From IMG/VR virus record IMGVR_UViG_3300037237_000057: a stretch of 20,000 nt of DNA. One strand, written 5' to 3'. Position numbers and translations under genes: made by a program. Below, piece after piece: positions 1,801 through 20,000 of this stretch. Position 1 is the first letter of the stretch. Every line of letters starts with the position of its first letter. Origin of the DNA: an uncultured virus (IMG/VR IMGVR_UViG_3300037237_000057) (taxonomy: Duplodnaviria; Heunggongvirae; Uroviricota; Caudoviricetes). The notes beneath the pieces were generated by a model. It had not been told where the DNA came from, ran no database searches, and saw only the letters and a list, made by a program, of their open reading frames with translations.

Positions 1801-1811
1801 GTTGATTCTCC

Positions 1812-4400: not shown

Positions 4401-4710
4401 TGACTTCCTTCTTTATATGCAGGAGTTTGTCGCGTGCTTCTTGCAAGACCTTCGCCGGGCTTGGTCCACCCGTCTGCGATGCCTTGAATGCGTCTCGATT
4501 GGCAATGCCGATGACGTTTGCAATGGTCGGCCTGCCGCCTATGGGCTGGATGGTTGAGAGATCCGTATTCTCGTCGAGAGCAAGGGGAGCCGGTTCGCGC
4601 TGGAGGTAATCGAGAAACTTCTGGCGCATGGATTCGAGTGCCTCCTCGGCCTTCTGCGCCCGTGTCCGTTCCTCGTCAAACCTCTCGCGCGAGACGAATG
4701 GGAATCTCAT
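4390..4710 (-). CDS. Hypothetical protein (106 aa) with N-terminal coiled coil
   Basis: TAATG coupling to the upstream gene; overlaps the portal start by 11 nt. Confidence 0.7.
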   Translation of the reverse strand: MRFPFVSRERFDEERTRAQKAEEALESMRQKFLDYLQREPAPLALDENTDLSTIQPIGGRPTIANVIGIANRDAFKASQTGGPSPAKVLQEARDKLLHIKKEVNGG

Positions 4711-5926: not shown

Positions 5927-6002
5927 CTGGCTCCCATTCGTCTCTAAGCATTCCAATGCAGAGGACCGCCAAAATCAGGAAGATCGCGGCGATCCCCTTC
6001 AT
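5850..6002 (-). CDS. Putative small single-pass membrane protein (50 aa; MKGIAAIFLILAVLCIGMLRDEWEPDEDEPDW...), not in the ORF track
   Basis: ATG 6 nt after the upstream stop fills the gap in the operon. Hydrophobic N-terminus followed by an acidic segment. Overlaps the lysozyme 5' end by 77 nt. Confidence 0.45.
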   Translation of the reverse strand: MKGIAAIFLILAVLCIGMLRDEWEPDEDEPDWTGTDRKQRRSFTEDRCGQ

Positions 6003-6008
6003 TGTCTA

Positions 6009-6251
6009 TTATCCAACCGTTTCAGCGATCAGCGCGGAAATCTTGCCTTTCACGGTTTCGGCCGATATGAAAAACGGGGTATTCATCACTTGGATGGTAA
6101 GCGTCGGGTCAATGTAGTGCCACTGAACCTGAACGCCGAACTTGCTGGCTTGGCCGCTTTCTCCCACAATGGGCACTCCAGCGGCTTGAGCCTTGGCAAC
6201 AAGCGCAGCATATTGCGTGGGGTTAATGGTGAATACCTGTGGGGCGTTCAT
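6009..6251 (-). CDS. Hypothetical protein (80 aa)
   Basis: TAATG coupling to the upstream gene; globular alpha/beta-like sequence. Confidence 0.7.
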   Translation of the reverse strand: MNAPQVFTINPTQYAALVAKAQAAGVPIVGESGQASKFGVQVQWHYIDPTLTIQVMNTPFFISAETVKGKISALIAETVG

Positions 6252-6769
6252 TAGACCTTCGCCACGCCCAGCGTTGGATTTGCGGCAGATGCATCATTCC
6301 ATGTCTTCTTGTACTGGCTCTCAGGTGAGTGGAAGATGCTGCGCTTGAAGCTCGGGACGAGTACCTGAACCTTGGCTGTCGTCTCCGCAATCACTTGCGC
6401 AGCGTACATGGCCTGCGTCTCTTCATGCACAGGTACGCCAGCGGGAGGAGCCGGTGCCGGGGAGTTGCCGGTCACAATCCCAATCACGGTTATGATGCCG
6501 CCGAGGATGATGTTGACGAACAGTTGATCCACATCGGGAATGGGCAGCAGTTTGACGGCACCCTGGAAATCTCCGAGGAGTTCGATGACCTCTTGCGCCA
6601 CGGTTCCGCTCTGCCAGTTCTGCAAAGCTGCGAGGGCGGCATTGTAGGCTGTTATGACAGCAATGCCAGCCGTCGTGTTGGTGAGTTTGGTTGCGGCGAG
6701 AATCGAGACTAGAGTCGGCTCGATGCCTTCCATCATTGCGATTGCTGTTTTGACCGCTGCTACACACAT
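6251..6769 (-). CDS. Hydrophobic helical membrane-associated protein (172 aa), lysis region
   Basis: Start reassigned to ATG 6769 (AAGGAG-7nt-ATG). Hydrophobic stretch LFVNIILGGIITVIGIV plus amphipathic helices. Confidence 0.75.
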   Translation of the reverse strand: MCVAAVKTAIAMMEGIEPTLVSILAATKLTNTTAGIAVITAYNAALAALQNWQSGTVAQEVIELLGDFQGAVKLLPIPDVDQLFVNIILGGIITVIGIVTGNSPAPAPPAGVPVHEETQAMYAAQVIAETTAKVQVLVPSFKRSIFHSPESQYKKTWNDASAANPTLGVAKV

Positions 6770-6785
6770 GATGATTCTCCTTTTC

Positions 6786-7082
6786 TTAAAGTGCCGACAG
6801 TTCTTGAATTTGGCGCAATCTTTCACGAAGATCCTCATAATAGCAATCATTCTCTGCGCACCTGTATACCTCAACATCATTCCCCATGCCGGAAAGAGTC
6901 AAGGTGCCAACCTGGATGCAGTTGACGATACCGTTATACCTGCGTTCTTCACACCCGACGCCGTGAACCGGGCCAGACTCAACTTCGGGCAGCTTTACGT
7001 GTTCCTTGCCACCCCAGAAGAAGTGATCTCCAACTTCCAATTCGGAAAAGCGAAGAGTCTTGGGATGATGCTGTTTTGGCAT
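6786..7082 (-). CDS. Hypothetical protein (98 aa)
   Basis: AGGAGG RBS before ATG. Begins with an F.EL.VGD.F pattern common in small phage proteins. Confidence 0.75.
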   Translation of the reverse strand: MPKQHHPKTLRFSELEVGDHFFWGGKEHVKLPEVESGPVHGVGCEERRYNGIVNCIQVGTLTLSGMGNDVEVYRCAENDCYYEDLRERLRQIQELSAL

Positions 7083-7090
7083 AAAGCCTC

Positions 7091-7333
7091 CTATTTATTG
7101 CGGTCATAAAGGAAATCATCAACTGCTAACTGCCGTTTCCCGAAGTCTGGGTGCATATCGCCTCTCCATGCACTTGGTTGGCCTTGATGAGCCTCCCCTA
7201 AAATCAGCAGCACAGCGCGATAGATCATCGGTTTCCAGCTAGAAAACCAACAACAGCTAGGATTGGCCAGCACCATGGCGGCTCTCGTTAGGCCGTCTTT
7301 ATAGCCCCGCTCGTATTCTATCGCCGCTTTCAT
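7091..7333 (-). CDS. Hypothetical protein (80 aa)
   Basis: ATGA overlap with the upstream gene and AAGGAG upstream. YERGYKDG motif. Confidence 0.65.
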   Translation of the reverse strand: MKAAIEYERGYKDGLTRAAMVLANPSCCWFSSWKPMIYRAVLLILGEAHQGQPSAWRGDMHPDFGKRQLAVDDFLYDRNK

Positions 7334-7701
7334 TCTGTCGGCTCCTTGACTGCCGGGGGCGGCAAGATCACTGTGGTCCTCGACAGCGTTGTAGCTACCG
7401 CCGTAGCTTCCGATTCATTCGGTAACGGAGATTTTACGAGAACCGATGCAGGCCCAGCGGAGGCATCAGAAAGAATGTTCTTTGCCGCGCCTTGGCTTGA
7501 GCTGTCACGGCTATATTTCATAATGATTCCGGCAATCAATATCACGTTGGCGATGATCTTCGGGTGGTGGACGAAAGCAGAAACGAGCAGACTGCGTACC
7601 TGTTCGTCAGAGGTGATGAGGGTCGCCCCGGCGATTAAAAAGGCGACGATAGTGTGACTCGTAATGTTCTTAGACTTAAACCAAGCAACAATGCTGTTCA
7701 T
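7330..7701 (-). CDS. Putative holin (about 123 aa; two hydrophobic segments and a polar C-terminal tail)
   Basis: TIVAFLIAGATLIT and IIANVILIAGIIM segments. Directly follows the peptidase via TGATG coupling; alternative GTG start at 7704. Confidence 0.55.
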   Translation of the reverse strand: MNSIVAWFKSKNITSHTIVAFLIAGATLITSDEQVRSLLVSAFVHHPKIIANVILIAGIIMKYSRDSSSQGAAKNILSDASAGPASVLVKSPLPNESEATAVATTLSRTTVILPPPAVKEPTE

Positions 7702-8477
7702 CACGCCGCCTTCATTGCCGCCACAAGGCTGTTGAGGTTGATACCCAGCGGGTCCACGTTCTGTTGGTTGAGGAAGGTATCAGAGACCACAATATAGCCC
7801 TCGTCGATGTAACTCCCCATGAAGCCAGCCGACGCCGGGATAAATAATCCCCAAGAGCGCATCTTTGCGCCTTGCGATCCCTCACCCGCCTGATCGATGC
7901 AGTGGCCCCCAGCGGATGGCAGTCCGGGCGCAAAGTTCCAGTTTGTTGTATCGTCCTCGCATTGCTGTGGACATTGAATGCCCAAGTAGCTGCCCCCGAA
8001 GGTATATGCCGCCCAGCGCATCAGAGCGAAGCTGGAAATATCGAGCGATGCCCATCCAACTATCTGGCTTAACCGGCTCTTGCCTGAGCGCGTGGTGACC
8101 TCGAAGCCGGTATTCTTCCAATAATCAAGCGCGATAGTCAAAACGCCGCCGTTGTCGGTTGGATTGTTTCCTGATGGCCCTGCGTTTGGATCGAACCCCG
8201 TCACGGCACTGTAGAGAGCGAGTGCCTGAGCCGTGGTGGGCACAATCGGGTCTGACGGGTCGGCATTGTTGCTCTGTATCTGAGCAAGACCGTAGGCACC
8301 CGCAAATGGACAGTCGCCCCAAAGATCGTTTCCGAGCACGCTCATCTCCGATTGCGGTACCGCGAATTCCCATCCCTGAGCAGGCACCGGAGGCCAAGTG
8401 GCAACCGCCGTCATGTGGTCAGACAGCGCAACGTGGGTTGGTTTGTGAACTGGGGCGAGCTTGCCAAGTTTAAGCAT
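7701..8477 (-). CDS. Papain-like (C1-related) cysteine peptidase, 258 aa, candidate second endolysin
   Basis: GNDLWGDCPFA (catalytic Cys), DNGG, GGHC (His) and SWG motifs in papain order. AGGAGG RBS. Flanked by membrane-protein genes. Confidence 0.75.
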   Translation of the reverse strand: MLKLGKLAPVHKPTHVALSDHMTAVATWPPVPAQGWEFAVPQSEMSVLGNDLWGDCPFAGAYGLAQIQSNNADPSDPIVPTTAQALALYSAVTGFDPNAGPSGNNPTDNGGVLTIALDYWKNTGFEVTTRSGKSRLSQIVGWASLDISSFALMRWAAYTFGGSYLGIQCPQQCEDDTTNWNFAPGLPSAGGHCIDQAGEGSQGAKMRSWGLFIPASAGFMGSYIDEGYIVVSDTFLNQQNVDPLGINLNSLVAAMKAA

Positions 8478-8487
8478 TTCTATCCTC

Positions 8488-8877
8488 CTAATGTGAAGAT
8501 TCTACTGCTTCCGGGGGCTTCGGGGTGTGGGAACTCTCAGCCGATGGCATATCAGCGGCGTATTGCTGAAATCCATGACTGAATTCAGGCTGCACCGTCT
8601 TCTTCGCTGCCATCAGGTCGCGGACCAGCCGCTGCGTCTGGGCAGGCTGCACCACATTGATTACCTTGACTTGAGCGCTTAGGGTGTCGATCTGGCGCTG
8701 GAGGTCTGTCACGCGCTGGTCATGCTGCGTTGCGGTTGCGGTAATCTTCGCATCCTCTTCCGCAAACTTGCTGTTGAGCCATACCGCACCGCCCCAGACT
8801 GAGCCTCCAAAGCCGCCAAGGATTGTCACCACGGCAAGGATAAGGGGGATCTGAGACGTGTTGGCCCGTGTGGTCAC
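8488..8877 (-). CDS. N-terminal TM plus coiled-coil protein (129 aa), i-spanin- or holin-like
   Basis: Start reassigned to GTG 8877 (GTGA overlap, GAGG upstream). IPLILAVVTILGGFGGSVWGGAVWL followed by the heptad segment QRVTDLQRQIDTLSAQV. Confidence 0.6.
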   Translation of the reverse strand: MTTRANTSQIPLILAVVTILGGFGGSVWGGAVWLNSKFAEEDAKITATATQHDQRVTDLQRQIDTLSAQVKVINVVQPAQTQRLVRDLMAAKKTVQPEFSHGFQQYAADMPSAESSHTPKPPEAVESSH

Positions 8878-9071
8878 TTGTTTTCGCCTCTCTTGTTCAG
8901 CCTGTCGCAAAGATCATAGGCCATCTGACCGGGGTTAATCTCCGCTGGCATGGACGCCCAAAATGATGCTACGGTCTGATTCGGCTCGGGCGCATACTGG
9001 GTGTCCCGCACATCCCACCAGTCGTTACCGTCTTTGACCGGCTTGGTCACGATATACCGCTGCGTGGTCAT
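8874..9071 (-). CDS. Hypothetical protein (65 aa)
   Basis: ATGA overlap with the upstream gene; GAGGG upstream. Confidence 0.65.
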   Translation of the reverse strand: MTTQRYIVTKPVKDGNDWWDVRDTQYAPEPNQTVASFWASMPAEINPGQMAYDLCDRLNKRGENK

Positions 9072-9232
9072 GTGGTCAGCCCTCTCTCTTTCCGTTGGTA
9101 TTTCTGCGCAATGGCCAGCAGCTCAGCTTCTTTCTTGAGCCATGCTTGATACTCAGCGTGGGTCATGGTGCTGCCAGTGGCGACGGCGACCAGAGGGCCT
9201 GTAGGATAGCCGGGTTTGGTTGGCTGGATCAT
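9068..9232 (-). CDS. Hypothetical protein (54 aa, MIQPTKPG...)
   Basis: Start reassigned to ATG 9232, an ATGA overlap with the upstream stop. Confidence 0.55.
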   Translation of the reverse strand: MIQPTKPGYPTGPLVAVATGSTMTHAEYQAWLKKEAELLAIAQKYQRKERGLTT

Positions 9233-9456
9233 ATGTGAACTCCGCTGGCATGAAGGATCATATCCGCTATGATAGTAGCGAAAATTCCTACAAGCAGCCA
9301 AACCATTTTGCTGAGATTTGAAGAAATTCCAGATATCGTAACTTCAGTCAACGTGACGCGAGTAGCGAGAGAAGGTTCACTCTTGCCCCTGTCAATCATC
9401 ACAAAGTCGTGAAGTTTCTCGAATTCTCGATTTAGATGTTCCAAGTCCGCCACCAT
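9229..9456 (-). CDS. Small C-terminally anchored membrane protein (75 aa), XhlA/holin-like architecture
   Basis: Helical N-terminus followed by MVWLLVGIFATIIADMIL. First gene after the fibre cluster; AGGGGG upstream. Confidence 0.65.
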   Translation of the reverse strand: MVADLEHLNREFEKLHDFVMIDRGKSEPSLATRVTLTEVTISGISSNLSKMVWLLVGIFATIIADMILHASGVHI

Positions 9457-9462
9457 GTCCCC

Positions 9463-10368
9463 CTAGTTCACCAGTTGAGGTTGAGAAATCTGGTCGCCGG
9501 TCGCTGAACCATTGGCGTCGATCACAAAGCCACTATAACCAGTAGTGTACGGCGAAGATGAATCAGTCACAGTACCACAGAGTACACCATTGCGATAGAC
9601 ACTGATTGCAATAGACTTTTCTGCCACAATCACCGCGCTGGCCCTGAAGACGCTGGTGGCCGTAAAGCCTGCGCTGCAGACGGCGGTGCCGATGGATTTG
9701 CATACCCCGGCTGTGCATTTGGTAACTTGCTGGTTGTCGCCGGAATTGTTGAGACTGACCGAGTATCCGTTGCCTGCAGCGGTCGTTGAAAGCAATCCCT
9801 GAATCGCGCCAAGACCGTCAACCGCAGCCACGGTGAACTGAATAGAGGGCGTCAGCGATGCCGGGCAGGATGTGAGGATAGCCCCGCCGCCGCGATATTT
9901 GGCATTAGCCTGCGCGACGCCAAGATCTTGCACCACACTGCCCCCGCCGATTGAGAACCCGGCAGGCTGCGTCCAGTTGGCGGAATTTAGAGCCGCCCCC
10001 AAGGCCCCGCTGAACGGATCGGTGAAGGGGGCGCAGGTGCCAGGTGGAGGCGGTGGAGGCGGAGGCGTGGTGCCGGTAGGGTAGGTGATTGTCACTGTTC
10101 CCGAAACTGGCATATTCCCGCTGATGTCTGTTCCTGAGACGCCCAGCGCTCCTGAGAGAGTTCCGGTAACGGTCGCTGTCGCCGGCGGGGATGCAGTGCC
10201 GGTTGGATATGTGACCGCTACGGTCCCCGAGACGGGCATACTCCCGGTAACACCAGTACCTTGAACGGTCAGTGTCCCCGTGAGGATCCCAGTAACGGTC
10301 GTCGTCTGGGCGTGAGCGATAGCAGCGAACAGAAACAAGCCTGCGAGTATCTTCATGGGTATCCTCAT
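9463..10368 (-). CDS. Signal-peptide protein (about 300 aa): tandem 37-aa repeats, poly-Pro linker and a lectin/concanavalin-like beta-sandwich
   Basis: Start at ATG 10368 (ATGA overlap) or 10356 (GAGG RBS): MKILAGLFLFAAIAHA|Q. C-domain FTDPFSG...NW...YRNG...VTDSS...GYSGF. Confidence 0.8.
   Translation of the reverse strand: MRIPMKILAGLFLFAAIAHAQTTTVTGILTGTLTVQGTGVTGSMPVSGTVAVTYPTGTASPPATATVTGTLSGALGVSGTDISGNMPVSGTVTITYPTGTTPPPPPPPPGTCAPFTDPFSGALGAALNSANWTQPAGFSIGGGSVVQDLGVAQANAKYRGGGAILTSCPASLTPSIQFTVAAVDGLGAIQGLLSTTAAGNGYSVSLNNSGDNQQVTKCTAGVCKSIGTAVCSAGFTATSVFRASAVIVAEKSIAISVYRNGVLCGTVTDSSSPYTTGYSGFVIDANGSATGDQISQPQLVN
10069..10305 (-). repeat. Intragenic duplication of 37 aa with a 42-aa period
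   Basis: TTTVTGILTGTLTVQGTGVTGSMPVSGTVAVTYPTGT versus TATVTGTLSGALGVSGTDISGNMPVSGTVTITYPTGT. Confidence 0.85.
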
Positions 10369-13300
10369 TGAATCGTCACGCTTCCAGTGATCTTGACCGG
10401 GCCGGTGATCGTCACCGAAGACGGCGCCGAAACTGGCGAAAATGTAGCGCTCACGGCGCAAGCGTTATTCGGCATCGAGAACGTGTAGGGATTCCCAGAA
10501 CCGCCGCAAGTTCCGGTGATACTAGAAGTGACGTAACCAGCGTTTGGAACTGGCGTGCAGGAGACAGATGTCCCATAGTTTTTAGCGCCTGTCGAGCAGC
10601 CCGTTATGGTTCCATTGCTCGGTGCATTGACTGTAAGCGTCCAGCTATTGAGCGCGAATGACGCGGTGGTGGTCACATTGCTGCTGCCGATAGTGCCTGC
10701 GCACACATTGCCTGTTATCGTGCCAGGGCAGAGCGTGATGCTGGAGAAGGTGCTTCCGATGCCTGCCGTTGCCGTTGAAGAGTAGCTTGCCCCCGTCGCT
10801 AGCCCGCTTGCAGGACAGTTTGTGCCTGAGTATGTGCCTGTCCCTGTTCCAGTCTTTGTCGGGGTGCAGGAGTAGGTCGGGGCCGTTATGGTGTACGCGG
10901 CAGAGCCCACTGAGGAATCAAGATAACCCGTTCCCCCCGCCACTGCATAGAGGGTTTCGCTGGCTGAGACGGACACTGGGCTTGTGTAAAGTGTCCCAGT
11001 TGTGCAACCAGTCGTCCCATTCGTTGCCGGTGAGCCGGTGGTGTTATAGCAGATTACGCCCCCACTAGATGTGGAGATTGCCACGTTCTGGGTACTTGAG
11101 TACGTGCCAGCCACTGGGCTAAAGGTCGGCGTTCCTGCTGTGGGTGTTCCACCACTAGAGTCTTCGGCACCAATGTCCAGCGGGTGCGTGCGGGCCGTGA
11201 GCTGGCTGGTGGACACGTTATAGCCGTAGCGCACAGGCAATTGCGCGGCAAGCCCGGTCAGCGCGGAACCGGCCCCGATAGCCGCAGAGCCGGATTGCGG
11301 GATCATGGTGGTGGAGTTGTAGGGCTGCGTAGCCGTGTTGAGGAAGTTGCCGTTCGTCAGCCCGTAGATGTGGGTATTCATGGGAGCAGACAGCGGCCAG
11401 AGGCAAGTCAGGTCGCAGCTATTTGGCCACCCAAAAGCGTATCCGCTCGAATAGCTGACGGTCGCTGAAATGGGAATTGGGTTGGCGATGTACGAATAGC
11501 TCGATGGCAGCGTGGTGAGCAGGTTGGTCGTCGCTGACAGCACGAGCGTCTGAAAGTCGCCCATCTGTATGGTGGAGTTCAGGCCGGAAGTTCGCGTTGA
11601 CCAGAAGATGTTATTCCATGTGTTGACGTGGGAGGTCAGGTACGGATCGTAGCCATCGTTGTTCTCTCCAATGGCAAATGCGACAGCGGCATTGTCCAGC
11701 GTGTTGTTGTAGAAGTAGAGGAAGCCGTTGCGGTCGGTCATGTCACCGATATTGTCTTCCGCGTAGTGGATCTGATCGAGGGCCGAAGCTCCATAGAGCA
11801 TGTTTCCGTAAACGAAGTCCTTTTGTTTACTCTCTTGATACCACGTCAGATTCGGCCCCAGACGGTCGCCGTAGAAGTACATTCCTGAGTTTGCCAAGTA
11901 GTATTCAAAGGCTACATACTGCGCGGCATCTTGAACCTCAACCATATCGACAACACGCTGCGCTCCGGTGCCGATGTAGTTGTAGCGGATGATCCCTTCA
12001 ACGCCGCGCCACTTGAGCATTGACCCTGTTGCCGTGGCGTTGTAGTTGTCGATGCGGTTGCCTTCCAACATGCAATAGAAGCACTGAACGTAAAGCTGAT
12101 GATAAGTCGCGCTTCCGGCAACACCAGAGTTCTGAATGTGATTGCCGCGAATCGTGACATTAGTTGTCGTGACGACAAACCCACTGTTGTCTGAATTCTC
12201 GGCAAGGAAGGTGCCATTCGAGTTGTTGTCGATGTCGTTGCCGTCGAAATCAACATAGATGCCGGAGCGAAGGTTGATGCCCGCCGCGCCCGCTACCCAT
12301 CCGCAAGTAGTGTGCGTTCCTGAGCCGTCGGGGCAGACACCAGAGATGCCCCCAGGCTGAGTGTAGTTGTTCCCCGGTCGCGCATTCTTAACGTGCAACC
12401 CGGTGATCAGCACATAGGCCGGAGCCATGACGGAGTTGCCGTCTCCAGAGTAGGGCGTGATAGCGTCCTGCCAATAGCCGTAATGGGGCTGTGCCATCCA
12501 GAGACTCATCACGCCGTAACCGGCCGCCGCGCCAATTGAGATGGAAGCGTCTGAGGATGTGGCGTTGTTGCCGTCCATGATGGGAAGATTGCCCAGCGAA
12601 TCAGGGACGCCGCAAAAGATGATGGGCTGAGTTGCAGTTCCCGATTGCTGGATCTGAAAATACTCAGGAAATGTGGATGGACTCAATCCTGTTGTGTCGG
12701 TGTTGACTAGCTGATACATCGTCCCCGGAGTGATGCCTGTGATAACAGGTGTGCTGCCGATTGTGGTGTAGGCTTTGCCGGCGCCTATCTGATAGAAGCC
12801 TCCCGTCAGAGCCGGATCGCGGTAGCATTCGCGCGGTGCGGTCTGTTCGGCGTTGCCAGCCGTGGCCCATGAAGGCATCGCATTGGGACTGACGTAGACG
12901 ATGGCCGTGTTGGAGCCGGAGTTGCAGTTGTCTGCATACTTGATGCCGTAGCGCCCGGTCACGCTGGCTGTGAATATTGTGTCGCGGTTGGTTGTGTCAG
13001 AGAGTGTGCCGTTGCCGCCCGCTGGCTGACTCGTGATTGACCATGTTCCTGTCTCATCTACGCAGCCCACCACCCACGATTGCAGGCTCATAGGCTGGCT
13101 CTGAAACGCCTGCTGATAGGCCGGAGCAACGATGACCGAGTTCTGCCCGTTGGGAAGCGTGCTGGTTGAATTGGCGCATACGTTGAATTTGTAGGTCGCG
13201 CTCTTGGTCGTATCGTCCACAGATTGGGCTGTAACCGTCACCACGCCGGTAGAAGCGAACGTGTAGGGACCAGCGTTGCCCGGCCCCGGCGTCACGGTGC

Positions 13301-14945
13301 AGGTCCCCGCGGTGCTCCCGATATTGACCTGCATGACAGGCAATCCGCCCGAGATGGACGATACCGCGCTGTGGGTCGGGTCAGTAAATGTGGCGCTTGT
13401 GCCACCCGTACCCGATGCAGTCCAATTGACGGTGCAACTACCTGTTCCAGACGTGCATTGCGTGCCGCTGATGGTGATGTTGGCATTGATCGTGCGCTGC
13501 GATCCGGGCAAAACGCCGAAGGGGAATGCTGGCACATTGGCTGTGATGGCTACGGTACCGCCTCCGGAGATTGTGTAGACCGCGCTGCCCACAGCGCTGT
13601 CGGTGTAGCCGGGGCATCCATGCACGTAGGCATAGAGAGTAACCGCCGTGGTGACAGAGTACGTGGTTTGGTTGGTGGTCGGCGTGGGGTTGGTGTCGAA
13701 GTAGATGTACGAGCTGCAACCGCTGGTGCTAGTGGAGGCTGTCACGGTCGTTGGGTTAGATACCGCGCCTGCCACTGGAGAGAAGGTTGGCGTGGACGCT
13801 GAGCCGCCACCTGATGAGGACTTGGGATATACCCAAAGTTCATGCTGCCCCGAGGATGTGGGGTCGGTAGCCGTATAGAAGCTGTCATCCCAAGGGCTGA
13901 TTGCTATTTGCTTATCGCTGGCCTGTTCACCCGAAGGCAAGCCTGTGGAGAATATACTCCAAGTCACCCCGCTATCAGTCGATCGATAGATGTTGGAGTT
14001 CCAGCCGCCAAGATACTCGCCTGCTACCACGTTTCCATACAGAGCGTGGTTGCTGATTTTGTTGTACGTTCCGCCTTGACTGAGGTCAGTCCAGGTGTTC
14101 GTGGACACCACATACCGCGATATCGAATAGGGACCACTTGAAAGGATTCGGCTCACTGCAATCAGGTAAGTCGGGGAGGTACTGGCGTTTCCGTCGCCAA
14201 CAATAACCTGTGCGTTACCGCCATACCCGGCAGCAGTGGTTGCCCACATGGCAGTGCCGCTGGACATATTCGCGGGGGACTTCATGTACGCTCCCTCACC
14301 GCCCCAGTACATCTGCCCATTGTACAGCGCCATTGCGTAATTGTAGCCACTCGTATAGCCGAAGCCAGTGTAGGCATCAGTGACCAAAGAACTGAATGTG
14401 GACCCGCCGTTGGTGGACTCCCAGAAATCAGCGGAGAGATCGCTCAGGTATATGTTGTTGCTGGCGTCCACCTGAAGGTTGCGCAGTTGCGTTTTGGTGC
14501 CGGATGGGTTGGAGGAGAAGGACCACGTAGACCCATTCCATTTTCCAACGACGCAATAAGAGCATCCTAGTCCGGGGCCGACACTGCCGATTCCGGCATA
14601 GATATTACCCGCAGAGTCTTGCGTCCAGCTATTCACTTCCGCAGTTCCGGAGTTCTGTGTGGCCGCAGGAAACCCTGAATCAATCTCCGTCCAATCACCT
14701 GCAGTTGTCGGATGATCCCGAAGGTCAGACACTTTGGCTTCCCATGTGCCATTGCCGATCATCGACACGTACAGATAGCAGTTGCTTGAGGCGAAAAGAC
14801 TAGCAACGGATGCGGAGCCGGTCGTCATGCCGGAGGGCAACGTCAGTTGTGCCCACGCCGCCGATGTGTTCGGTCCTGTCGGACACACAACAGCGTGCGC
14901 GAGCGGGGCAAAGAGCGCCAGCAGGAACAGAATCGTTTTTCTCAT
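10365..14945 (-). CDS. Large signal-peptide multidomain protein (1526 aa): Asp-box beta-propeller, chitobiase-C/Fn3-like domain, Ig-like domains, right-handed beta-helix, second chitobiase-C-like domain and InlB-B-repeat-like domains
   Basis: Start reassigned to ATG 14945 (ATGA overlap): MRKTILFLLALFAPLAHA|VV. Motifs: ESTNGGSTF and RSTDSGVTW; two TPTFSPVAG...DS.VGSA.YTI units; N-rich helix rungs (DGNDIDNN, RGNHIQN, EGNRIDN, YNNTLDN); SAAIGAG...DIGAE. Confidence 0.88.
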   Translation of the reverse strand: MRKTILFLLALFAPLAHAVVCPTGPNTSAAWAQLTLPSGMTTGSASVASLFASSNCYLYVSMIGNGTWEAKVSDLRDHPTTAGDWTEIDSGFPAATQNSGTAEVNSWTQDSAGNIYAGIGSVGPGLGCSYCVVGKWNGSTWSFSSNPSGTKTQLRNLQVDASNNIYLSDLSADFWESTNGGSTFSSLVTDAYTGFGYTSGYNYAMALYNGQMYWGGEGAYMKSPANMSSGTAMWATTAAGYGGNAQVIVGDGNASTSPTYLIAVSRILSSGPYSISRYVVSTNTWTDLSQGGTYNKISNHALYGNVVAGEYLGGWNSNIYRSTDSGVTWSIFSTGLPSGEQASDKQIAISPWDDSFYTATDPTSSGQHELWVYPKSSSGGGSASTPTFSPVAGAVSNPTTVTASTSTSGCSSYIYFDTNPTPTTNQTTYSVTTAVTLYAYVHGCPGYTDSAVGSAVYTISGGGTVAITANVPAFPFGVLPGSQRTINANITISGTQCTSGTGSCTVNWTASGTGGTSATFTDPTHSAVSSISGGLPVMQVNIGSTAGTCTVTPGPGNAGPYTFASTGVVTVTAQSVDDTTKSATYKFNVCANSTSTLPNGQNSVIVAPAYQQAFQSQPMSLQSWVVGCVDETGTWSITSQPAGGNGTLSDTTNRDTIFTASVTGRYGIKYADNCNSGSNTAIVYVSPNAMPSWATAGNAEQTAPRECYRDPALTGGFYQIGAGKAYTTIGSTPVITGITPGTMYQLVNTDTTGLSPSTFPEYFQIQQSGTATQPIIFCGVPDSLGNLPIMDGNNATSSDASISIGAAAGYGVMSLWMAQPHYGYWQDAITPYSGDGNSVMAPAYVLITGLHVKNARPGNNYTQPGGISGVCPDGSGTHTTCGWVAGAAGINLRSGIYVDFDGNDIDNNSNGTFLAENSDNSGFVVTTTNVTIRGNHIQNSGVAGSATYHQLYVQCFYCMLEGNRIDNYNATATGSMLKWRGVEGIIRYNYIGTGAQRVVDMVEVQDAAQYVAFEYYLANSGMYFYGDRLGPNLTWYQESKQKDFVYGNMLYGASALDQIHYAEDNIGDMTDRNGFLYFYNNTLDNAAVAFAIGENNDGYDPYLTSHVNTWNNIFWSTRTSGLNSTIQMGDFQTLVLSATTNLLTTLPSSYSYIANPIPISATVSYSSGYAFGWPNSCDLTCLWPLSAPMNTHIYGLTNGNFLNTATQPYNSTTMIPQSGSAAIGAGSALTGLAAQLPVRYGYNVSTSQLTARTHPLDIGAEDSSGGTPTAGTPTFSPVAGTYSSTQNVAISTSSGGVICYNTTGSPATNGTTGCTTGTLYTSPVSVSASETLYAVAGGTGYLDSSVGSAAYTITAPTYSCTPTKTGTGTGTYSGTNCPASGLATGASYSSTATAGIGSTFSSITLCPGTITGNVCAGTIGSSNVTTTASFALNSWTLTVNAPSNGTITGCSTGAKNYGTSVSCTPVPNAGYVTSSITGTCGGSGNPYTFSMPNNACAVSATFSPVSAPSSVTITGPVKITGSVTIQ

Positions 14946-16798
14946 TGAATCACCCCGCTCAGCACGCCGCTGAAGAATGAGCCATTGATTCCGCCAGCCA
15001 CGTACTGATATGCACCAATGTCCCACGCACCGGATGCTGGCCGCGCATTCCCAGCCGTGTCGAAACAGAGTGCAGGAATTGTCGCGCAATTGCTTGTGAG
15101 GTTCTGGCCAGCCAGAATGACTGCGCTTCCAGACGAAGGCACATAGCCTGCGGAGAGGTTTGGATTACCGAGAGTGGCGTTCGCGTCCTGCGCTCCGTAG
15201 GTGTTGCCAGCCGACTGCCAATTCGCAAAAGTTATTTCGTTCCAGCAGGTTGCGGACGTAGCATAGCAGTTGTAGTAATCGTTGTAGTTTGAGGTCAGAT
15301 TATAAGTCTGTCCTGCCCTGGCCTGAAGTCTTGTATTGAACTGAGCACGCTCACAGATGTTATTGATGAATTGTATGTTAGATACTGCACTAGTTCCAGA
15401 CTCGATCCCTAGGCAAGTAGTACTTTGCAAAACCCCGCTTGCATAGTCGTTACTCATTTCTGTATTGTTGAAAATGTCCAGATAGGTTGTTGATGATGGT
15501 GGGTTATTTGACACACAGATTTCGCCGCACCCAAAATGCGCTACACTGCCTTGGTCGTTCAGCACGTTATTAAACATCATCAGTGGGGTGCCGGAAGACC
15601 CTCCAGAATTCTCCCAGAAATAGCATGAATTTAAGCCTCTTCCCCAATTACCATCGCAAAGGTTGTTGTATACAAGCATGTTCGTAGCTATGAGATTCGC
15701 TTGAAATTGAAAGCCGTCATGGTGGCTATCGTCTACTTGGGGTCCATCGTCGAAGGTCGCACCATCATGGACGTGGTTGTTGTTGACGGTAATGTTGCTA
15801 AGTGTGGCGTTGGCACTGCTGCCGCCGATGTTTATTCCGTGGTTTATGTATCCCACATTGTTCCCTGAGATTGTCACGCCTGTATTACTATCGCCTGGAA
15901 CGGCGTTATAGCCGATCCCAGACTGAGTGTAACTGATATTCAAATTCTGAATGGTGGCATTATTTACGTTCTGAAAGCCAACCGCACCAGAACCTATAAA
16001 CCCAGCAGACTCGTCGTACATGAATCCGCCCGTTGCTGTTTGCCCAGAAGCTACCAGGGCCGTGTTGATCGTCGCGGTGCTGCCTGTACAGGTAGCAATT
16101 GGTATTCCCGCCGCGCCCTCTGTTGTAGGAATGTTGAGAGCTGAATTAGTCGAACCGTAGAGCGAGATCGGTACTCCAATCGAGTAGGCGCAGGGGTTGG
16201 TTAGATTGATCGTCACCACACTGCCACTAGATGAGAGAGAACTGACGGGCTGTGCTCCAAGCGGTTGATAAGCCGGCCCGATTGCGCAGGTCGAACTTGC
16301 GTCGCACTCAACCGTGGTGTTGCTTGTGTTTGCTGAGTAGATGAGGGTGCCACCTTGCTGATAGGTAAGGCCAGCGCCGTTTGCTGTTGTTTGGATCACC
16401 GCCCCAGAACCTAAACTAAGGACTGCGTAAGCCACGTTCAGATCGACGATTCCATCCGTACCGGCGTAAGGGGCTGTGATAGCTGAACCATTGTCGAGAC
16501 GCAGGGTGATTGGATTGCCTGAAGTCCCTGCCTGCTGCCACTTAAAATAAGCTGATGCCCCTGCTGGACCTGTCCATGTTCCACACACATGAACTGTAGT
16601 GCCAGGGCTGATCTTTCCTGCTGTGTAGGTTGAAGCCCAGTTGCCGAGTGTTGTCCAAAAGGTAACGGCATAAGCATTTCCGCAAGAGGTTCCAGTTCCC
16701 GATCCTGCGACGGTTTCAGCCACATAAATGTCCTGCGTTTGCGCCCTAGCGAAGTTGGCAGCGACGACAAGCGCCAGAATAAAAGCGAGTTTTAGCAT
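14942..16798 (-). CDS. Signal-peptide right-handed beta-helix protein (618 aa), depolymerase/adhesin-like
   Basis: Likely start ATG 16798: MLKLAFILALVVAANFARA|Q. Motifs: YVA...GSGTG.SC.NA, GTSGNPIT, NNHVHD, HHDGFQ, YNN/FNN rungs, and a choice-of-anchor-Q-like DTAGNARP...WDIGAYQY. Confidence 0.88.
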   Translation of the reverse strand: MLKLAFILALVVAANFARAQTQDIYVAETVAGSGTGTSCGNAYAVTFWTTLGNWASTYTAGKISPGTTVHVCGTWTGPAGASAYFKWQQAGTSGNPITLRLDNGSAITAPYAGTDGIVDLNVAYAVLSLGSGAVIQTTANGAGLTYQQGGTLIYSANTSNTTVECDASSTCAIGPAYQPLGAQPVSSLSSSGSVVTINLTNPCAYSIGVPISLYGSTNSALNIPTTEGAAGIPIATCTGSTATINTALVASGQTATGGFMYDESAGFIGSGAVGFQNVNNATIQNLNISYTQSGIGYNAVPGDSNTGVTISGNNVGYINHGINIGGSSANATLSNITVNNNHVHDGATFDDGPQVDDSHHDGFQFQANLIATNMLVYNNLCDGNWGRGLNSCYFWENSGGSSGTPLMMFNNVLNDQGSVAHFGCGEICVSNNPPSSTTYLDIFNNTEMSNDYASGVLQSTTCLGIESGTSAVSNIQFINNICERAQFNTRLQARAGQTYNLTSNYNDYYNCYATSATCWNEITFANWQSAGNTYGAQDANATLGNPNLSAGYVPSSGSAVILAGQNLTSNCATIPALCFDTAGNARPASGAWDIGAYQYVAGGINGSFFSGVLSGVIQ

Positions 16799-16799
16799 T

Positions 16800-17714
16800 C
16801 TAATAAGCGTACCCATTCGAGGTCGCCCCCGTCACTGAAAGAGTTCCCGTAAATGGCCCATAGGCTGTTCCAGACCTGACGTTAGCAATGCCGGGGTCTG
16901 TAGGTGTCACTGTAGCGTGTGAATTGACGACGCCCAAGGTGTAGCTGGTATCTTTTGGGGAGATGATGTAGTTGGTTGCTGCCGGGGTATAAAGAACTCT
17001 GCCAGCGATTGCTTGCGAATCTAGGCCGTTGACGATATTGCCTGTCAAGACGCTCCCCGTTCCTGTACCAACGCTGCATCCGTTGGTGGCGACTGTATTC
17101 GATCCAAAGCAGGTTCCAGCTAAATTGACGCCGCCCGTGGCTCCAGCGTAAACAAGTCCAGTAGCCCCGGTGGCGCTTCCCGCAGTAAAATTACCGACGT
17201 AGTACACAACAACAAGAGTGTGTGCGTCAGTTGATCCTAATTGACTGGAGGTTGATCCGCCTGTGATATTGCCGCAGATTGTTCCTCCACCCGTGGACCC
17301 CGTGATCGTTAAAGCTGTGGTCTTTGTGGCTGTGACGTTGGCGTGGATCGCGAGGTTGGTCGCAGTGGCATAAGTAAACGCACCGCCGTTTGTGGCGTCC
17401 GTAGCGAGCGTTGTAGTCACGGTCACCGTACCGCAGACACCCGCACTTGCGCCTGTCGCAGCACCGGGGTCCACATTCACCGCAATGCCCGTGCAACCGT
17501 TGGCGTTTAGTACGTCACCATTTGCGAAACTACCTACAGCGACTGGAGTTCCGGTAGCTACACACGAAGCTCCTTGAGTTGGGTACCATCCTGCTCCGCC
17601 AGTTGTGTAGTTGATGTTTTGGCTAACAAGCAGGTTGGCGTAATATGTCGTCGCCCACGCTGGGCATGAGCCCAGGAGCGCAATAAGGAGAAGAATGCGA
17701 GTTGCCGTTTTCAT
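16800..17714 (-). CDS. Signal-peptide (possibly lipoprotein) Thr/Gly-rich beta-solenoid protein (304 aa)
   Basis: ATGA overlap. [27 protein letters not shown][IF]T[GA]G-type rungs. C-terminal [19 protein letters not shown] resembles phage fibre motifs. Confidence 0.82.
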
Positions 17715-19726
17715 TGTTGCACCGCCAGTACCAGATTCCAGTTATCGCACGTTGCGGAGTTCACGTTTGCCATCAGCACATCGTTCTTAGCGATGGTTTT
17801 CCCTGTTGACCATCCGGTAAGCGTGGTGTCTTGATAGTATTTTGCCGTTGAGAGCGTAGGCAGGTCTGAGGCCGTGATGGTGTTCGTTACCGTGGGGATT
17901 GCCGCATTGACCTTCCACACGTCGATCACTGCCGAGCAATTCCCCGCGCTCAATGTTCCGGTCAGAGTCGCCGAAATGATAGTACCCGCGAAAGGCGCTG
18001 TGAAGGACGGGGTTGTGCCCGTTCCAACAGCGGTTCCCGCCGCCGCGCTGTTGCCGAAGGTAATGCTGGTGATTGAGACGCTGGCGACCAATGATGAGTT
18101 AGGAACTGTACCGCTATTGATCTCAGAACCCGCGATACTCTTGTTTGTCAGCGTCTGCGTATCTGTGGTGCCGACAATGGTTCCAGCGGGGGCGGCCACT
18201 GAGGATGTAACGGTGGTTGCCGTGGCTGCAATAGGAATCTGGGTTGCTGTCATGCCAGACAAACCACTAGAACCGCCTGACCCATTCGCTGCCGCCGTAA
18301 TTGACCCGTCTGCCGCAACAGTAATATTGGCGTTAGTGTAAGACGCTGCCGTTACTGCTGTTGCCGCGATGTTGGCGTGTGGCAGCAGTCCGGTCACATC
18401 CGCAGAAGCCAAATTCACCGCGCTTGATGTCAGCACCGATTCGTTTACGTTGTCGCCTGTAGCCGCCGCAGCCGCGTGCAGAATGCCAGCCGCAGCCGTA
18501 GCGGGGAGCTTGTACAGGAACGATGTGCCGCCCGTAACAGGAGCCGCGAATCCAGCGCTGTTTGCTGCGAGTGCGGGGATGTTGCCTGTTCCTGCTGAAA
18601 GATAGAGGGAGTTTGGGGTCGTTCCGGTACCTTGGAAGCTGGAGCCACTAACCGCCCCTGTGCTGGCAACCGAACTTGGCGTAATTGCTCCAAGTGCAAT
18701 AGTCAGCGCTGGTGTTGCCCCGCCTGACGATGTGCCGGAAACGCCGTTTGCCGATGCTATCGAAACCGCTGTGACCGTGCCAAGAGGAACCGCCGTATTG
18801 CAATTGAGCAGTGTCCCTGTCGCTGTGTAGGTACACATATCGCCGTCGGTGTATGTGCCTTTGAGCAGAGAAAGCGCCGATGTTGCCGTGGTTGCATTTC
18901 CGCTCAGCGCCCCGGTGAAGCTCGGTGCGCTCAACGCTACATTCGACGCGATGCTATTAGCCGCCCACGTCAGCGTTGGGGTGCCGGTATCGGCGCTTGC
19001 TATCGTGCCGCCTGCGAGGAGGGCAAGGTTTGTAAACGTCTGCGTAGCCGTCCATGTGTTCGCGTGGCCGAGAGCAAGAGACGCTATCACCGCGCCTGTA
19101 GTCGGCGAAACGGTCAACGTGCCGTCGGAATTGCTTGTAGACGAAACACCGCCACTGCTTCCATTTGCCGCAGCTGTCACGCTGCCATCTGCCGCAACGG
19201 TGATATTCGCGTTCGTGTAGCTTCCCGGAGTCACCGCAGTTGCCGCAATATTGGCGTGCGGGATGCCTGTGGGCAAGTCAGCCACAACCAGCGCGCGGAA
19301 AGTCGGTGCCGCTGCTGAGCCTGTAGTCGGACCAGCGAGGATAGTATTCGCGGTCTGCGTGCCGAACCCCGCGAGTATTTGAGCCGCGGTCGCAATCGAA
19401 GGTACGCCGGTTGCGGTCGTATTGTAGAGAATCCCGGAAGCAAGCGCCGAGAGTTGCGTACCGTTGAGGCCCGTTACTGTGGTTGCACCGCCTGTCAATG
19501 TGCTGTGTGCATCGCCTGAGAGCGCCGTGAATGAACCCGACCCGCCTGTAAATGTGCAAGTAGTTCCTGTGCAAGACACACCAGAACCTGTAAAGGTAAA
19601 ATTGCCAGTAGAACTATTGATAGACAGAACACCGCCAAGCCCTACTGGGCCAATGACAGGCGTCTGCGCGAACGCAGAAATAGTAAACAATACACTGGCA
19701 ATTAGTACAAAAAGTTTCTTTATCAT
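17711..19726 (-). CDS. Tail-fibre-like protein with a signal peptide (671 aa)
   Basis: Start reassigned to ATG 19726 (GGAG upstream): [21 protein letters not shown]. Fibre-type motifs [41 protein letters not shown] twice and [15 protein letters not shown]-terminal beta-sandwich PFAGTI...IDVWK. Confidence 0.8.
18281..19261 (-). repeat. Two copies of a 34-aa motif (19160-19261 and 18281-18382)
   Basis: [34 protein letters not shown] versus [34 protein letters not shown]; 31 of 34 residues identical. Confidence 0.9.
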
Positions 19727-19737
19727 TATGCTCCGTC

Positions 19738-19968
19738 TCATTTTGTTGGGTTTAATAGTCTGTTCTGGGGGATTCTCGCACCTTGGTAAAATATTCGAAG
19801 AGTATCCCCTGTTGAACTAGATAAGATTGGTAGTGGGCATCTTGTAAAACCAGTCAGACCCGGTTGAAAGTTGTCCATATTTGTTACTCCTACAGGAGTA
19901 GTACCAGCTTTGTCAACCGGACCATAATTACTTAGATCGAGTTCCCTAGACTGTTCTAATGAAGGCAT
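19738..19968 (-). CDS. Hypothetical protein (76-77 aa)
   Basis: AAAGGAG RBS precedes tandem ATGs at 19971 and 19968. AT-rich segment. Confidence 0.7.
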
Positions 19969-20000
19969 CATAACTCCTTTGTTTTGTTAGAGTTCCTGGC

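Follow-up and report, generated by a model that had tools for sequence, protein, structure and literature searches.

Tailed phages are assembled, in the textbook account, entirely in the cytoplasm. Filamentous phages assemble at the membrane without lysis of the cell, and their receptor-binding protein, g3p, has a Sec leader and disulfides. To our knowledge, signal peptides are absent from the proteins of Klebsiella-phage tailspike sets, which fold in the cytoplasm. The anchor-and-branch tailspike systems of Klebsiella phages [PMC8262889, PMC13579863, PMC12692247] are, like the locus described here, arrays of large beta-helix or fibre proteins, and the accessible parts of these papers do not contain the term "Sec signal peptide". 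The depolymerase sets of these phages, in the accounts available to us, also resemble this locus in having a conserved N-terminal anchor and exchangeable distal parts, and in being hypervariable between close relatives.

Leaders are known on other proteins that have something in common with the locus. Among late phage proteins, endolysins of the Sec-exported and signal-anchor-release kinds and the secreted antiholin RI rely on the Sec system of the host and stay in the periplasm until the holin is triggered, according to the available part of one review [PMC6116005]. Some Porphyromonas gingivalis prophage genes encode host-type (Q-rule) signal peptides suited to the host signal peptidase I, as described in the accessible part of that study [PMC10367356]. 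The MAT fibres of Bdellovibrio bacteriovorus, which the accessible part of the source presents as having many paralogues, combine a signal peptide, a conserved beta-rich N-terminal domain, and mosaic adhesive parts like those of tail fibres [PMC10769870]. Phage DGR targets are stated in the literature to be without leaders, and our literature search turned up no account of tail fibres or tailspikes with Sec leaders.

Coupled genes with leaders and paired cysteines

We analyzed a 20,000-nucleotide stretch of DNA from an uncultured soil phage (the window), in which five minus-strand genes encode proteins of 671, 304, 618, 1526, and 297 aa:

17711-19726, minus strand: g671, fibre protein; Sec-type leader in codons 1-20 (19667-19726); 6 mature Cys
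16800-17714, minus strand: g304, small beta-helix-like protein; leader 17652-17714; 6 mature Cys
14942-16798, minus strand: g618, putative beta-helix protein of a host-type family of predicted polysaccharide-cluster enzymes; leader 16742-16798; 16 mature Cys
10365-14945, minus strand: g1526, multidomain protein; leader 14892-14945; 30 mature Cys
9463-10356, minus strand: g297, protein with two T/G-rich repeats, a poly-Pro linker, and a C-terminal domain with 6 Cys; leader 10309-10356

The g671/g304 and g618/g1526 junctions are ATGA overlaps, the spacer between g304 and g618 is 1 nt, and g297 is preceded by an 8-nt spacer with GAGGA. With these overlaps and short spacers, the five genes are tightly coupled; the original prediction had called them coupled.

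Searches of Pfam and PHROGs placed none of the five proteins in a family, fibre families included, except for g1526, in which two accessory domains were recognized, one InlB B-repeat-like and one of the CHB_HEX_C type (PF18998, 1.2e-11; PF13290, 6.7e-5). g1526 also has two BNR-like motifs, at residues 177 and 322. It has one viral relative (81% over residues 309-1526), and a homologue of g297 (71%) that keeps its leader follows the g1526 homologue on another viral contig. g671 is the only one of the five with a sequence relationship to phage fibre proteins: its fibre repeat is common to 509 IMG/VR stretches, and at several of the loci that share it the adjoining genes are tail or baseplate genes. 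Among 76 complete ORFs with the repeat, 63 are leaderless and 13 bear leaders, and the leaderless fibres have few Cys. g304 has 55 homologues, some of which adjoin other leader-bearing genes in viral contigs (L190, L192, L193, and L194). g618 and g304 themselves have no Pfam match at E <= 0.01; PF13229 is assigned to homologues of g618 or g304 (P0004, P0009, P0012, P0070, and P0073; 1.7e-11 for a homologue in L133), including two of the listed g304 homologues.

Leader sequences had been proposed for all five proteins, and each reads exactly as proposed; for example, g618 has MLKLAFILALVVAANFARA with cleavage predicted before Q, g1526 has MRKTILFLLALFAPLAHA with cleavage predicted before V, and g297 has MKILAGLFLFAAIAHA with cleavage predicted before Q. 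For counting we used a crude heuristic of our own, not SignalP, which requires a basic n-region, a 9-residue stretch with a Kyte-Doolittle mean of at least 1.9-2.0, and small residues at -3/-1; a looser form of the rule also scans alternative starts. The heuristic calls all five genes as bearing a Sec/SPase I signal peptide, for which one expects, in the first ~35 residues, a basic n-region, a hydrophobic h-region of ~8-15 residues, and small residues at -3/-1. The leaders show the full n-h-c anatomy with AxA-type sites, and their style tracks the host group, with predicted cleavage between A and Q in low-GC, Bacteroidota-like contigs. The rule picked out 5/5 of the block genes in the window and 0/18 of the other ORFs. 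The background under the looser rule was 100 of 991 ORFs of at least 100 aa from 79 unrelated viral loci, and at that rate leaders on all five genes are far beyond chance.

Homologues of all five genes retain leaders, even as the leader sequences drift. In the g304 family, leaders were called at the annotated start in 50/55, and in 20/20 of those read by eye; in the g618 family they were called in 19/31 at the annotated start and found in 15/16 by reading. Our recount of mature Cys (6, 6, 16, 30, and 6 for g671, g304, g618, g1526, and g297) agrees with the numbers first reported, and the g304 leader holds one additional Cys. In three related genomes, 17/19 leader-block proteins have an even number of Cys, versus 60/105 other proteins of at least 150 aa (Fisher p 0.009); the two odd-Cys block proteins look like cases of a mis-set start or cleavage site. 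Parity is also even in 17/19 members of the g618 family, and there is no even-Cys bias in the g304 family (26/50 even). We strongly infer from these comparisons that the five proteins are exported. Export together with oxidative folding is a well-supported prediction from homologues and Cys parity.

The block in related genomes and its N-terminal domain

The block is larger than the module of five genes first described. Sister record G001, a 63.6-kb phage 99.83% identical to the window, has ten such genes in a row (~19 kb), and the five in the window are the distal half. Leaders are concentrated in the block: 9/10 block ORFs versus 2/39 elsewhere in G001, 4/4 versus 3/54 in G003, and 6/7 versus 10/59 in G004. 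They are maintained across the whole lineage, including on the six fibre-region genes of a distant relative, L017. The leader block and the lysis genes come before, and not after, the head and tail genes. Leader genes are followed by the holin/endolysin/Rz-like cassette and then by the HK97-fold capsid module, and in three records that CheckV estimates to be complete the block has phage early genes on one side and the lysis and head genes on the other. RecT, YqaJ, SbcC, and primosomal genes are found in the early region, and G003 has a terminal repeat. Landmarks in the window are:

19262-20000: stretch unmatched between the window and G001; module swap at the 5' end of g671
9229-9456, minus strand: small protein, holin-like by position only; membrane segment at the C-terminus; no family match
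8488-8910, minus strand: Rz-like (i-spanin-like) protein with an N-terminal membrane anchor; weak match (phrog_7686, 1.2e-4)
5489-5956, minus strand: endolysin (phage lysozyme), leaderless; PF00959, 2.9e-17; phrog_7, 1.5e-20
5413-5435, minus strand: best terminator-like hairpin in the window; 9 pairs, 5 G-C, T run; consensus match only
1812-4400, minus strand: portal-like 862-aa protein, assigned by size and position only, no family match; lineage marker

The hairpin lies 54 nt past the endolysin stop, where it may terminate a transcription unit comprising both the leader block and the lysis genes. A promoter scan of the window stayed at noise level (16 versus 9.9 expected), and no tRNA was found.

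Relatives were gathered with the portal-like protein, which has 14 viral relatives at 78-87% identity, is 40% identical in L017, and was not found in cellular contigs. Homologues of the capsid protein are confined to contigs of up to 67 kb. The capsid model (pLDDT 76.6, pTM 0.76) has 129 PDB matches at E <= 0.001, and all of those listed are HK97-fold shell proteins (phage, GTA, and satellite capsids and some encapsulins), with cyanophage A-1(L) (3e-9) and SU10 (3e-8) the best; its Atlas neighbors are viral at 0.98-0.99. On this model, the major capsid protein has the HK97 fold, as in Caudoviricetes. Comparison of the portal-like and capsid sequences with solved structures gave no meaningful match, Pfam was uninformative on the structural proteins even under permissive settings, and the fibre, capsid, and portal-like proteins had no match in 50,697 phage records; nor did isolate phages match the block in DNA or protein. 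We read the phage as lytic and tailed, with an HK97-fold capsid and a genome of ~60-70 kb.

The leader block is the hypervariable portion of the late region. Full-length identity between relatives is 95-96% for the capsid protein, 82-85% for the portal-like protein, and 71-75% for a 1023-aa protein; in block genes the N-termini alone are conserved. The G001 variant of g671 has a different N-terminal ~200 aa, with a leader still there. Two or three paralogues per genome share an N-terminal domain, and a conserved N-terminus with a variable C-terminus in 2-3 paralogues is the usual pattern for proteins docking on a shared phage platform. As to separate signal-less fibres elsewhere in the genome, the late genes held no other full-length-variable leaderless receptor-binding candidate, but the giant, variable, unassigned 2828-aa ORF of G001 could hide one.

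The shared domain of the core block genes is ~170 aa long and lies directly behind the leader. Its family comprises 742 clusters, nearly all with leaders, and it is N-terminal throughout the best 150 of the 742. Leaders were found in 133/148 members (Q at +1 in 78/133) and even Cys in 121/135 (p 2e-22), and 58 viral loci have the domain. It was absent from ~405 cellular genomes (401 from the class of a Terriglobia MAG, plus four further MAGs), in a search that recovered 5/5 phage records as positive controls. Within the genomes searched, then, the domain is by sequence phage-only, and its absence there makes a host secretion or envelope-anchoring tag unlikely. The five window genes are without the domain; in hhalign comparisons with the domain, the N-terminus of g1526 reached a probability of 5.5% and that of g671 1.6%. 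Pfam found no family in 47 of 48 members. Fold matches to the domain are middling: the best Z is 6.9, in a range called common, and small beta-barrels of phage tail proteins appear at Z 5-6. The model of a 316-aa core protein had no Foldseek match in the PDB at E <= 0.001 (viral matches had TM <= 0.21) and Atlas scores below 0.9, and the domain sequence had no meaningful match among solved structures.

g618 is different in origin. It has 31 homologues, and its family occupies 79 cellular loci, 62 of them in named Acidobacteriota, with no other phage protein matches there. The neighbors are polysaccharide-synthesis genes in 4/4 loci examined, and the host proteins are 27-54% identical to g618, aligned from the leader and mature N-terminus onward. 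These alignments place g618 in a family of secreted, host-encoded beta-helix proteins from Acidobacteriota polysaccharide-synthesis clusters. The periplasmic polysaccharide-modifying enzymes AlgG, AlgL, and PslG of other bacteria offer an analogy for this family. The phage host is probably among the Terriglobia (Acidobacteriota). Thus the view that the cluster is not simply captured host genes holds for the core domain and not for g618.

Fibre genes with leaders also take the fibre slot of 12 viral contigs unrelated to this lineage. They lie directly behind baseplate hub and wedge genes in L002, L010, and L016 and directly behind portal and capsid genes in L046 and L060, and they fill the fibre slot of P2/Mu-like baseplate modules of other contigs. 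In L010 and L016, leaderless fibre-like genes accompany those with leaders. When two leader-bearing fibres of other contigs were compared with isolate phages, short repeats alone matched.

Possible roles of the leader-bearing proteins

We tentatively favor the reading that the five genes are accessory cassettes of a receptor-binding and polysaccharide-degrading set that is exported and joins virions at lysis, and we give it close to an even chance, though short of one. Every member of the set would be made as a Sec/SPase-I preprotein, exported to the periplasm late in infection, and folded there with disulfides. Core members would carry the phage-specific ~170-aa anchor domain behind the leader, fused to variable distal parts, and some cassettes, such as g618, would be the host's own secreted beta-helix enzymes, taken over with the leader. 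Fibre-less particles built in the cytoplasm would meet the set once holin, endolysin, and spanin merge the compartments, and the set would then mount on the tail. Before lysis, it may already act on the polysaccharide coat of the cell. It is also possible, if somewhat less than evenly balanced, that whole tailed-phage lineages build the particle in two compartments, with capsid and tail put together in the cytoplasm and a complete receptor-binding and depolymerase set that is Sec-exported, oxidized in the periplasm, and mounted only when the holin opens the inner membrane.

Several observations weigh against mounting on the virion. The tailed-phage papers that our search found contain no account of mounting across compartments. 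The five window genes, being without the N-terminal domain, would need another docking route, and the fold matches of that domain are middling and the leader caller is a heuristic. The relatives of g618 are ordinary host enzymes. A leaderless receptor-binding part could lie in the 2828-aa ORF of G001, and leaderless fibre-like genes are present in L010 and L016. Lastly, the block and lysis genes precede the head genes, possibly as their own transcription unit, which would suit an envelope-acting module equally.

Such a module is the substance of a second reading, which we regard as possible, if on the whole doubtful: the proteins would be exported and never enter the particle, acting instead on polysaccharides as depolymerases and binders that are free in the periplasm or secreted and are produced together with the lysis genes. 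They could strip or loosen the exopolysaccharide or O-antigen of the infected cell, so that progeny escape the slime layer and fewer are lost on debris, and they may block superinfection; in effect, they would add a lysis step for an extra envelope layer. The position of the g618 family in host polysaccharide-synthesis clusters is consistent with this, as is the gene order, in which the block comes immediately before the genes for the holin, the Rz-like protein, and the endolysin, the best terminator-like site follows the endolysin, and the head genes lie beyond. There are precedents in the Sec export of endolysins and RI, as given in the available part of the review [PMC6116005], and in the P. 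gingivalis prophage genes of unknown function with host-type leaders, as given in the accessible part of that study [PMC10367356]. However, as much as 19 kb of a 63.6-kb genome is given over to the block, its conserved-N/variable-C anatomy with 2-3 paralogues is typical of platform docking, and the N-terminal domain is missing from the ~405 cellular genomes. The late genes offer no other full-length-variable leaderless receptor-binding candidate, and in other contigs leader-bearing genes sit in the fibre slot of P2/Mu-like baseplate modules. These points argue against the second reading.

We consider it unlikely that the exported proteins are fibres displayed on the infected cell in the manner of Bdellovibrio MAT fibres, for example to hold the cell near fresh hosts or matrix. 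The layout of leader, conserved ~170-aa domain, and variable parts would fit. However, we saw no outer-membrane anchor and no C-terminal sorting signal, the domain is phage-only in the genomes searched, and a lytic phage would gain little by decorating a cell that is soon to burst. It is quite improbable that the hydrophobic N-termini go unused, with the proteins remaining in the cytoplasm, joining the tail as usual, and forming disulfides after release. This would remove the topological problem, and late infection may impair Sec or the membrane potential, but the full n-h-c leaders with AxA-type sites in the style of the host group, the g618 leader inherited from host secreted proteins, the few Cys of leaderless fibres from the same search, and the strongly even parity of leader-bearing families all argue for export. 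That the block is host DNA outside the phage (a mis-assembled chimera or prophage flank) is extremely improbable even though the g618 family is mainly cellular, as its translationally coupled genes are embedded among phage genes in three CheckV-complete records, one with a terminal repeat, the N-terminal domain family is absent from ~405 cellular genomes, the portal-like protein is not in cellular contigs, and capsid homologues are on contigs of up to 67 kb alone.

Significance and comparison with known systems

If fibre and spike proteins with leaders and paired Cys do form a large, conserved, phage-specific family, either assembly of the virion would have a periplasmic leg, or the host coat would be attacked before lysis by phage enzymes of a new, exported class. 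If assembly does span two compartments, phages could adopt periplasmic polysaccharide enzymes of the host, leader included, as ready tailspike modules, a direct route for phage recruitment of host polysaccharide-cluster enzymes. The prediction of receptor-binding proteins in metagenomes would be affected, in that filters that drop signal-peptide proteins as "bacterial" would miss such a family, and depolymerases of this kind would likely misfold when produced in the cytoplasm. We know of no cultured Acidobacteriota phage, and the genes provide testable handles on such phages.

The locus differs from each of the described systems that it resembles. Unlike the Klebsiella-phage sets, the members of the block here all have a leader and paired Cys. 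Sec-exported endolysins and RI are lysis proteins, and the available part of the review does not mention exported fibres or depolymerases [PMC6116005]; the endolysin in the window is itself leaderless. The P. gingivalis prophage genes, in the accessible part of that report, number five, have no known function, and are taken to modify the host outer membrane; they are not described there as fibre or receptor-binding genes [PMC10367356]. MAT fibres, as presented in the accessible part of the source, are cell-encoded and cell-displayed [PMC10769870], whereas the genes here belong to a lytic phage and their N-terminal domain was not found in the cellular genomes searched; the likeness seen is one of layout. 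The secreted beta-helix proteins of host Acidobacteriota are encoded at loci without phage genes, whereas g618 is in a phage operon, coupled to fibre genes. In contrast to the filamentous phages with their g3p, the phage described here has an HK97-fold capsid protein and a lysis cassette.

Leader-bearing genes of the window and the phage that carries them

All plausible genes in the window are on the minus strand, including the five with Sec/SPase-I-type leaders, each named for its length in amino acids:

17711-19726, minus strand, g671
16800-17714, minus strand, g304
14942-16798, minus strand, g618
10365-14945, minus strand, g1526
9463-10356, minus strand, g297

Translational coupling links these genes. 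At two junctions they overlap by ATGA; the remaining two junctions have spacers of 1 nt and 8 nt, and the longer spacer contains GAGGA. The original prediction held that all five proteins begin with signal-type leaders and have even numbers of cysteines in their mature parts. Each gene does start with the leader proposed for it, and the mature Cys counts are 6, 6, 16, 30 and 6, in the order listed. A simple heuristic of our own design (basic n-region, hydrophobic core, small residues at -3 and -1) called leaders in 5/5 of these genes vs 0/18 other window ORFs. The proteins are high in T, S, G, A and N, and charged residues are very scarce (K+R 1.2-2.7%). Past its leader, g297 (9463-10356) has two near-identical T/G-rich repeats of ~43 aa each, then a run of eight to nine prolines and a Cys-bearing C-terminal domain. 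A tRNA scan found no tRNA in the window.

Downstream of g297 the genes are, in order:

first, a holin-like gene
second, an Rz-like gene (weak match to phrog_7686, 1.2e-4)
third, a phrog_19005 protein
fourth, membrane proteins
fifth, a phage lysozyme without a leader (PF00959, 2.9e-17)
sixth, the 862-aa portal-like protein and a Pro/Ala-rich protein

The lysis genes among these make up a holin/endolysin/Rz-like cassette with a leaderless endolysin. The top terminator-like hairpin of the window (5413-5435, minus strand) is 54 nt past the lysozyme (endolysin) gene, a hint that one transcription unit could comprise the leader block together with the lysis genes, apart from the head genes. The portal-like protein (window 1812-4400) is Cys-rich at residues ~223-263, with weak zinc-ribbon matches (DZR 0.02, TackOD1 0.0019); a zinc-ribbon-like insertion would be unusual for a portal.

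Across positions 1-19261, the window is 99.83% identical to a 63,617-bp viral record, G001, which is complete by CheckV estimate and is organized as follows:

early genes, minus strand: SbcC-like, RecT, YqaJ/RecE-like, radical SAM, primosomal and HNH
next, plus strand: three small genes
13170-32338: leader block, ten consecutive genes, the last five being those of the window
after the block: lysis cassette
structural module, without leaders: portal-like protein (862 aa), Pro/Ala-rich protein (568 aa), capsid protein (435-442 aa)
structural module, continued: proteins of 231, 314, 237, 122 and 1023 aa, then a 2828-aa ORF

Two relatives share this gene order. G003 is 57.7 kb long, has a terminal repeat and carries four leader-bearing genes in its block; G004 is 69 kb long and carries six or seven. 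From window position 19262 the window and G001 diverge abruptly within g671: over 19262-20000 the window does not agree with the G001 stretch L099, either in the upstream gene or in the first ~150-200 aa of the protein. In G001 the N-terminal ~200 aa of g671 are thus of another kind, and they still start with a leader. This divergence appears to be a recent module swap in which one leader-bearing N-terminus was exchanged for another.

The capsid protein has the HK97 fold. Its model (pLDDT 76.6, pTM 0.76) had matches at E <= 0.001 to 129 PDB chains. Every one of the listed matches is a shell protein with the HK97 fold: capsids of phages, GTAs and satellites, and some encapsulins. Cyanophage A-1(L) (3e-9) and SU10 (3e-8) are at the top. 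In the protein Atlas it falls within viral clusters (0.98-0.99), one of which carries SU10_MCP on 12% of its members, and all 33 homologues are on contigs of <= 67 kb. The capsid protein (L100:3134-4438 in G001, and relatives) is 95-97% identical, while the portal-like proteins of the same relatives are only 78-87% identical; it appears to be under unusually tight constraint. None of 50,697 isolate phage records had anything like the fibre, capsid or portal-like protein, and the portal-like protein had no match in the cellular contigs searched. The source of the window is a real, uncultured tailed-phage lineage, apparently virulent.

Two other late ORFs differ among the relatives. A 365-aa ORF of G001 (52099-53196; L100:12099-13196) has a Hint/intein-like segment (PF05203, 1.1e-5) and is much longer than its counterparts, which have 192 aa in G003 and 191 aa in G004; an inserted intein or homing element may account for the extra length. 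The 2828-aa ORF that closes the late region (54788-63274; L100/L101) has zero Cys and is conserved only in part; its G003 equivalent is three ORFs of 662, 759 and 669 aa, likewise without Cys.

Conservation and origin of the block

The block is hypervariable, with conserved N-termini. Among G001, G003 and G004, full-length identity is 95-96% for the capsid protein, 82-85% for the portal-like protein, 84-86% for the 231-aa protein and 71-75% for the 1023-aa protein; block genes have either no counterpart (all five window genes) or conserved N-termini alone. The first block gene (family A) shares its initial 280-370 aa with relatives. Other core genes have, immediately behind the leader, a domain of ~170 aa with two invariant Cys (the N-domain). 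Each genome has two or three paralogues with this domain, which in G001 are 316 and 892 aa long, and L017, a distant relative, has the domain too. The C-terminal parts fused to it range from 60 to 1400 aa. It was not detected in the five window genes, in comparisons that included the N-termini of g1526 and g671. Structure comparisons gave only middling matches and assigned the N-domain to no known fold.

A profile of leader plus N-domain, searched against 1.84 billion representatives, found 742 clusters at E <= 0.001 (207 at <= 1e-30). In the best 150 of these the domain is invariably N-terminal, in proteins of 140-1768 aa, and 133/148 representatives have leaders, most others being apparent mis-set starts. 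IMG/VR yielded 58 loci with 102 N-domain ORFs, and 31 of the loci contain the portal-like gene; leaders were called in 83 ORFs, 3 ORFs run off the locus, and the other 16 received no call, mostly because of start artefacts. A search of 401 genomes from the class to which a Terriglobia MAG belongs, and of four further MAGs, did not find the domain; the same search found it in 5/5 phage records used as a positive control. The profile and this cellular absence therefore argue that the block core is a phage invention. The claim that the cluster is not simply captured host genes thus stands for the core, with its phage-only N-domain, and fails for g618, which is of host origin. A search with the g618 family alignment found 79 cellular loci (62 Acidobacteriota lineages and 14 other phyla by record titles), to which none of the other G001 proteins has a match. 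In 4/4 annotated cellular loci a leader-bearing homologue is found amid polysaccharide-synthesis genes (DegT aminotransferase, UDP-glucose dehydrogenase, flippase, deacetylase, GT2 and GT4 glycosyltransferases, epimerase), from which we infer that the phage carries a host-type secreted beta-helix enzyme, leader included. This points to Terriglobia/Acidobacteriota as the probable hosts.

Leaders are kept for all five window genes and across the lineage. Among ORFs >= 100 aa, leaders were called for 9/10 block genes in G001 (the start of the remaining gene is uncertain), 4/4 in G003 and 6/7 in G004; outside the block the counts were 2/39, 3/54 and 10/59, mostly lysis-region membrane proteins or doubtful ORFs, and in 79 unrelated viral loci 100/991. 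All six fibre-region genes of L017, whose portal-like protein is 40% identical, have leaders, as do block genes of relatives with 78-87% portal-like identity wherever the locus includes the block. In the g304 family 50/55 leaders were called at the annotated start (20/20 on reading), and in the g618 family 19/31 by rule (15/16 on reading, several being masked by over-long gene calls). Homologues of g297 and g1526 occur together on one additional viral contig, with a leader on the g297 homologue. The following gene there (L253:5882-8080) encodes a 732-aa protein whose leader is of the lipoprotein type, Cys being the +1 residue, so the block may include lipoproteins.

Even Cys counts were found in 17/19 block proteins vs 60/105 other proteins of G001, G003 and G004 (Fisher p 0.009), in 121/135 N-domain family representatives (p 2e-22) and in 17/19 g618-family members. 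Unlike these families, the g304 family (P0032-P0086) has no even-Cys bias (26/50); the last residue of its proteins is aromatic (GGW, SNW, YAY). Leaderless fibre ORFs retrieved with g671 are low in Cys (mostly 0-7). Of 133 leaders of N-domain representatives (P0087-P0236), 78 have Q as their predicted +1 residue. The +1 glutamine rule is described as Bacteroidetes-specific in one report (PMC5837995). Here +1 Q is frequent though the lineage appears linked to Acidobacteriota, and A|Q sites also occur in several neighbouring Terriglobia proteins.

Leader-bearing fibre genes also occur in other phages. The g671 fibre repeat was found in 76 complete IMG/VR ORFs, 63 with ordinary fibre starts and 13 with leaders. 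Of the contigs with these leader-bearing ORFs, the 12 besides L017 (GC 0.40-0.66) have their leader-bearing genes grouped in runs. These genes immediately follow baseplate hub/wedge genes (phrog_196, phrog_6, phrog_587) on L002, L010 and L016, follow terminase, portal and capsid genes on L046, and follow a portal gene on L060; L010 and L016 have leaderless fibre-like genes as well. Genes of the g304 family likewise have leader-bearing neighbours, on contigs between 48 and 215 kb long.

Fate of the exported proteins

The leader-bearing block is real and, with ten genes in G001, larger than was reported. Export is strongly supported by comparison among genomes. The proteins would be exported via Sec, lose their leaders to signal peptidase I and be oxidised in the periplasm. 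We tentatively prefer the possibility that they are a receptor-binding and depolymerase set, which would be mounted on particles when holin and endolysin merge the compartments. We prefer this because the core has the layout of receptor-binding proteins docking on a common platform, because such genes occupy the fibre slot in other phages, and because comparison of G001, G003 and G004 revealed no other full-length-variable, leaderless receptor-binding candidate among the late genes. Somewhat less probably, the proteins are never on the particle and clear the polysaccharide coat of the cell as an accessory to lysis. This agrees with the origin of g618, with the placement of the block with lysis genes ahead of head genes, and with their possible common transcription unit. 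We suspect that the block is a set of phage receptor-binding/depolymerase cassettes routed through the periplasm.

None of the papers found in our literature searches describes a Sec leader on a tail fibre or tailspike. In a review of the enzymes with which phages breach the cell envelope (PMC6116005), the exported proteins listed are only endolysins that use Sec or SAR and RI, a secreted antiholin. For DGR targets, a missing leader was taken as a sign of phage origin in one study (PMC6199706), and another reports that five P. gingivalis prophage genes, all of unknown function, bear leaders (PMC10367356). Lastly, the Bdellovibrio MAT fibres (PMC10769870) resemble the block in layout, with leader, conserved domain and mosaic parts in that order, and by analogy a further alternative is that the exported proteins might be displayed on the surface.
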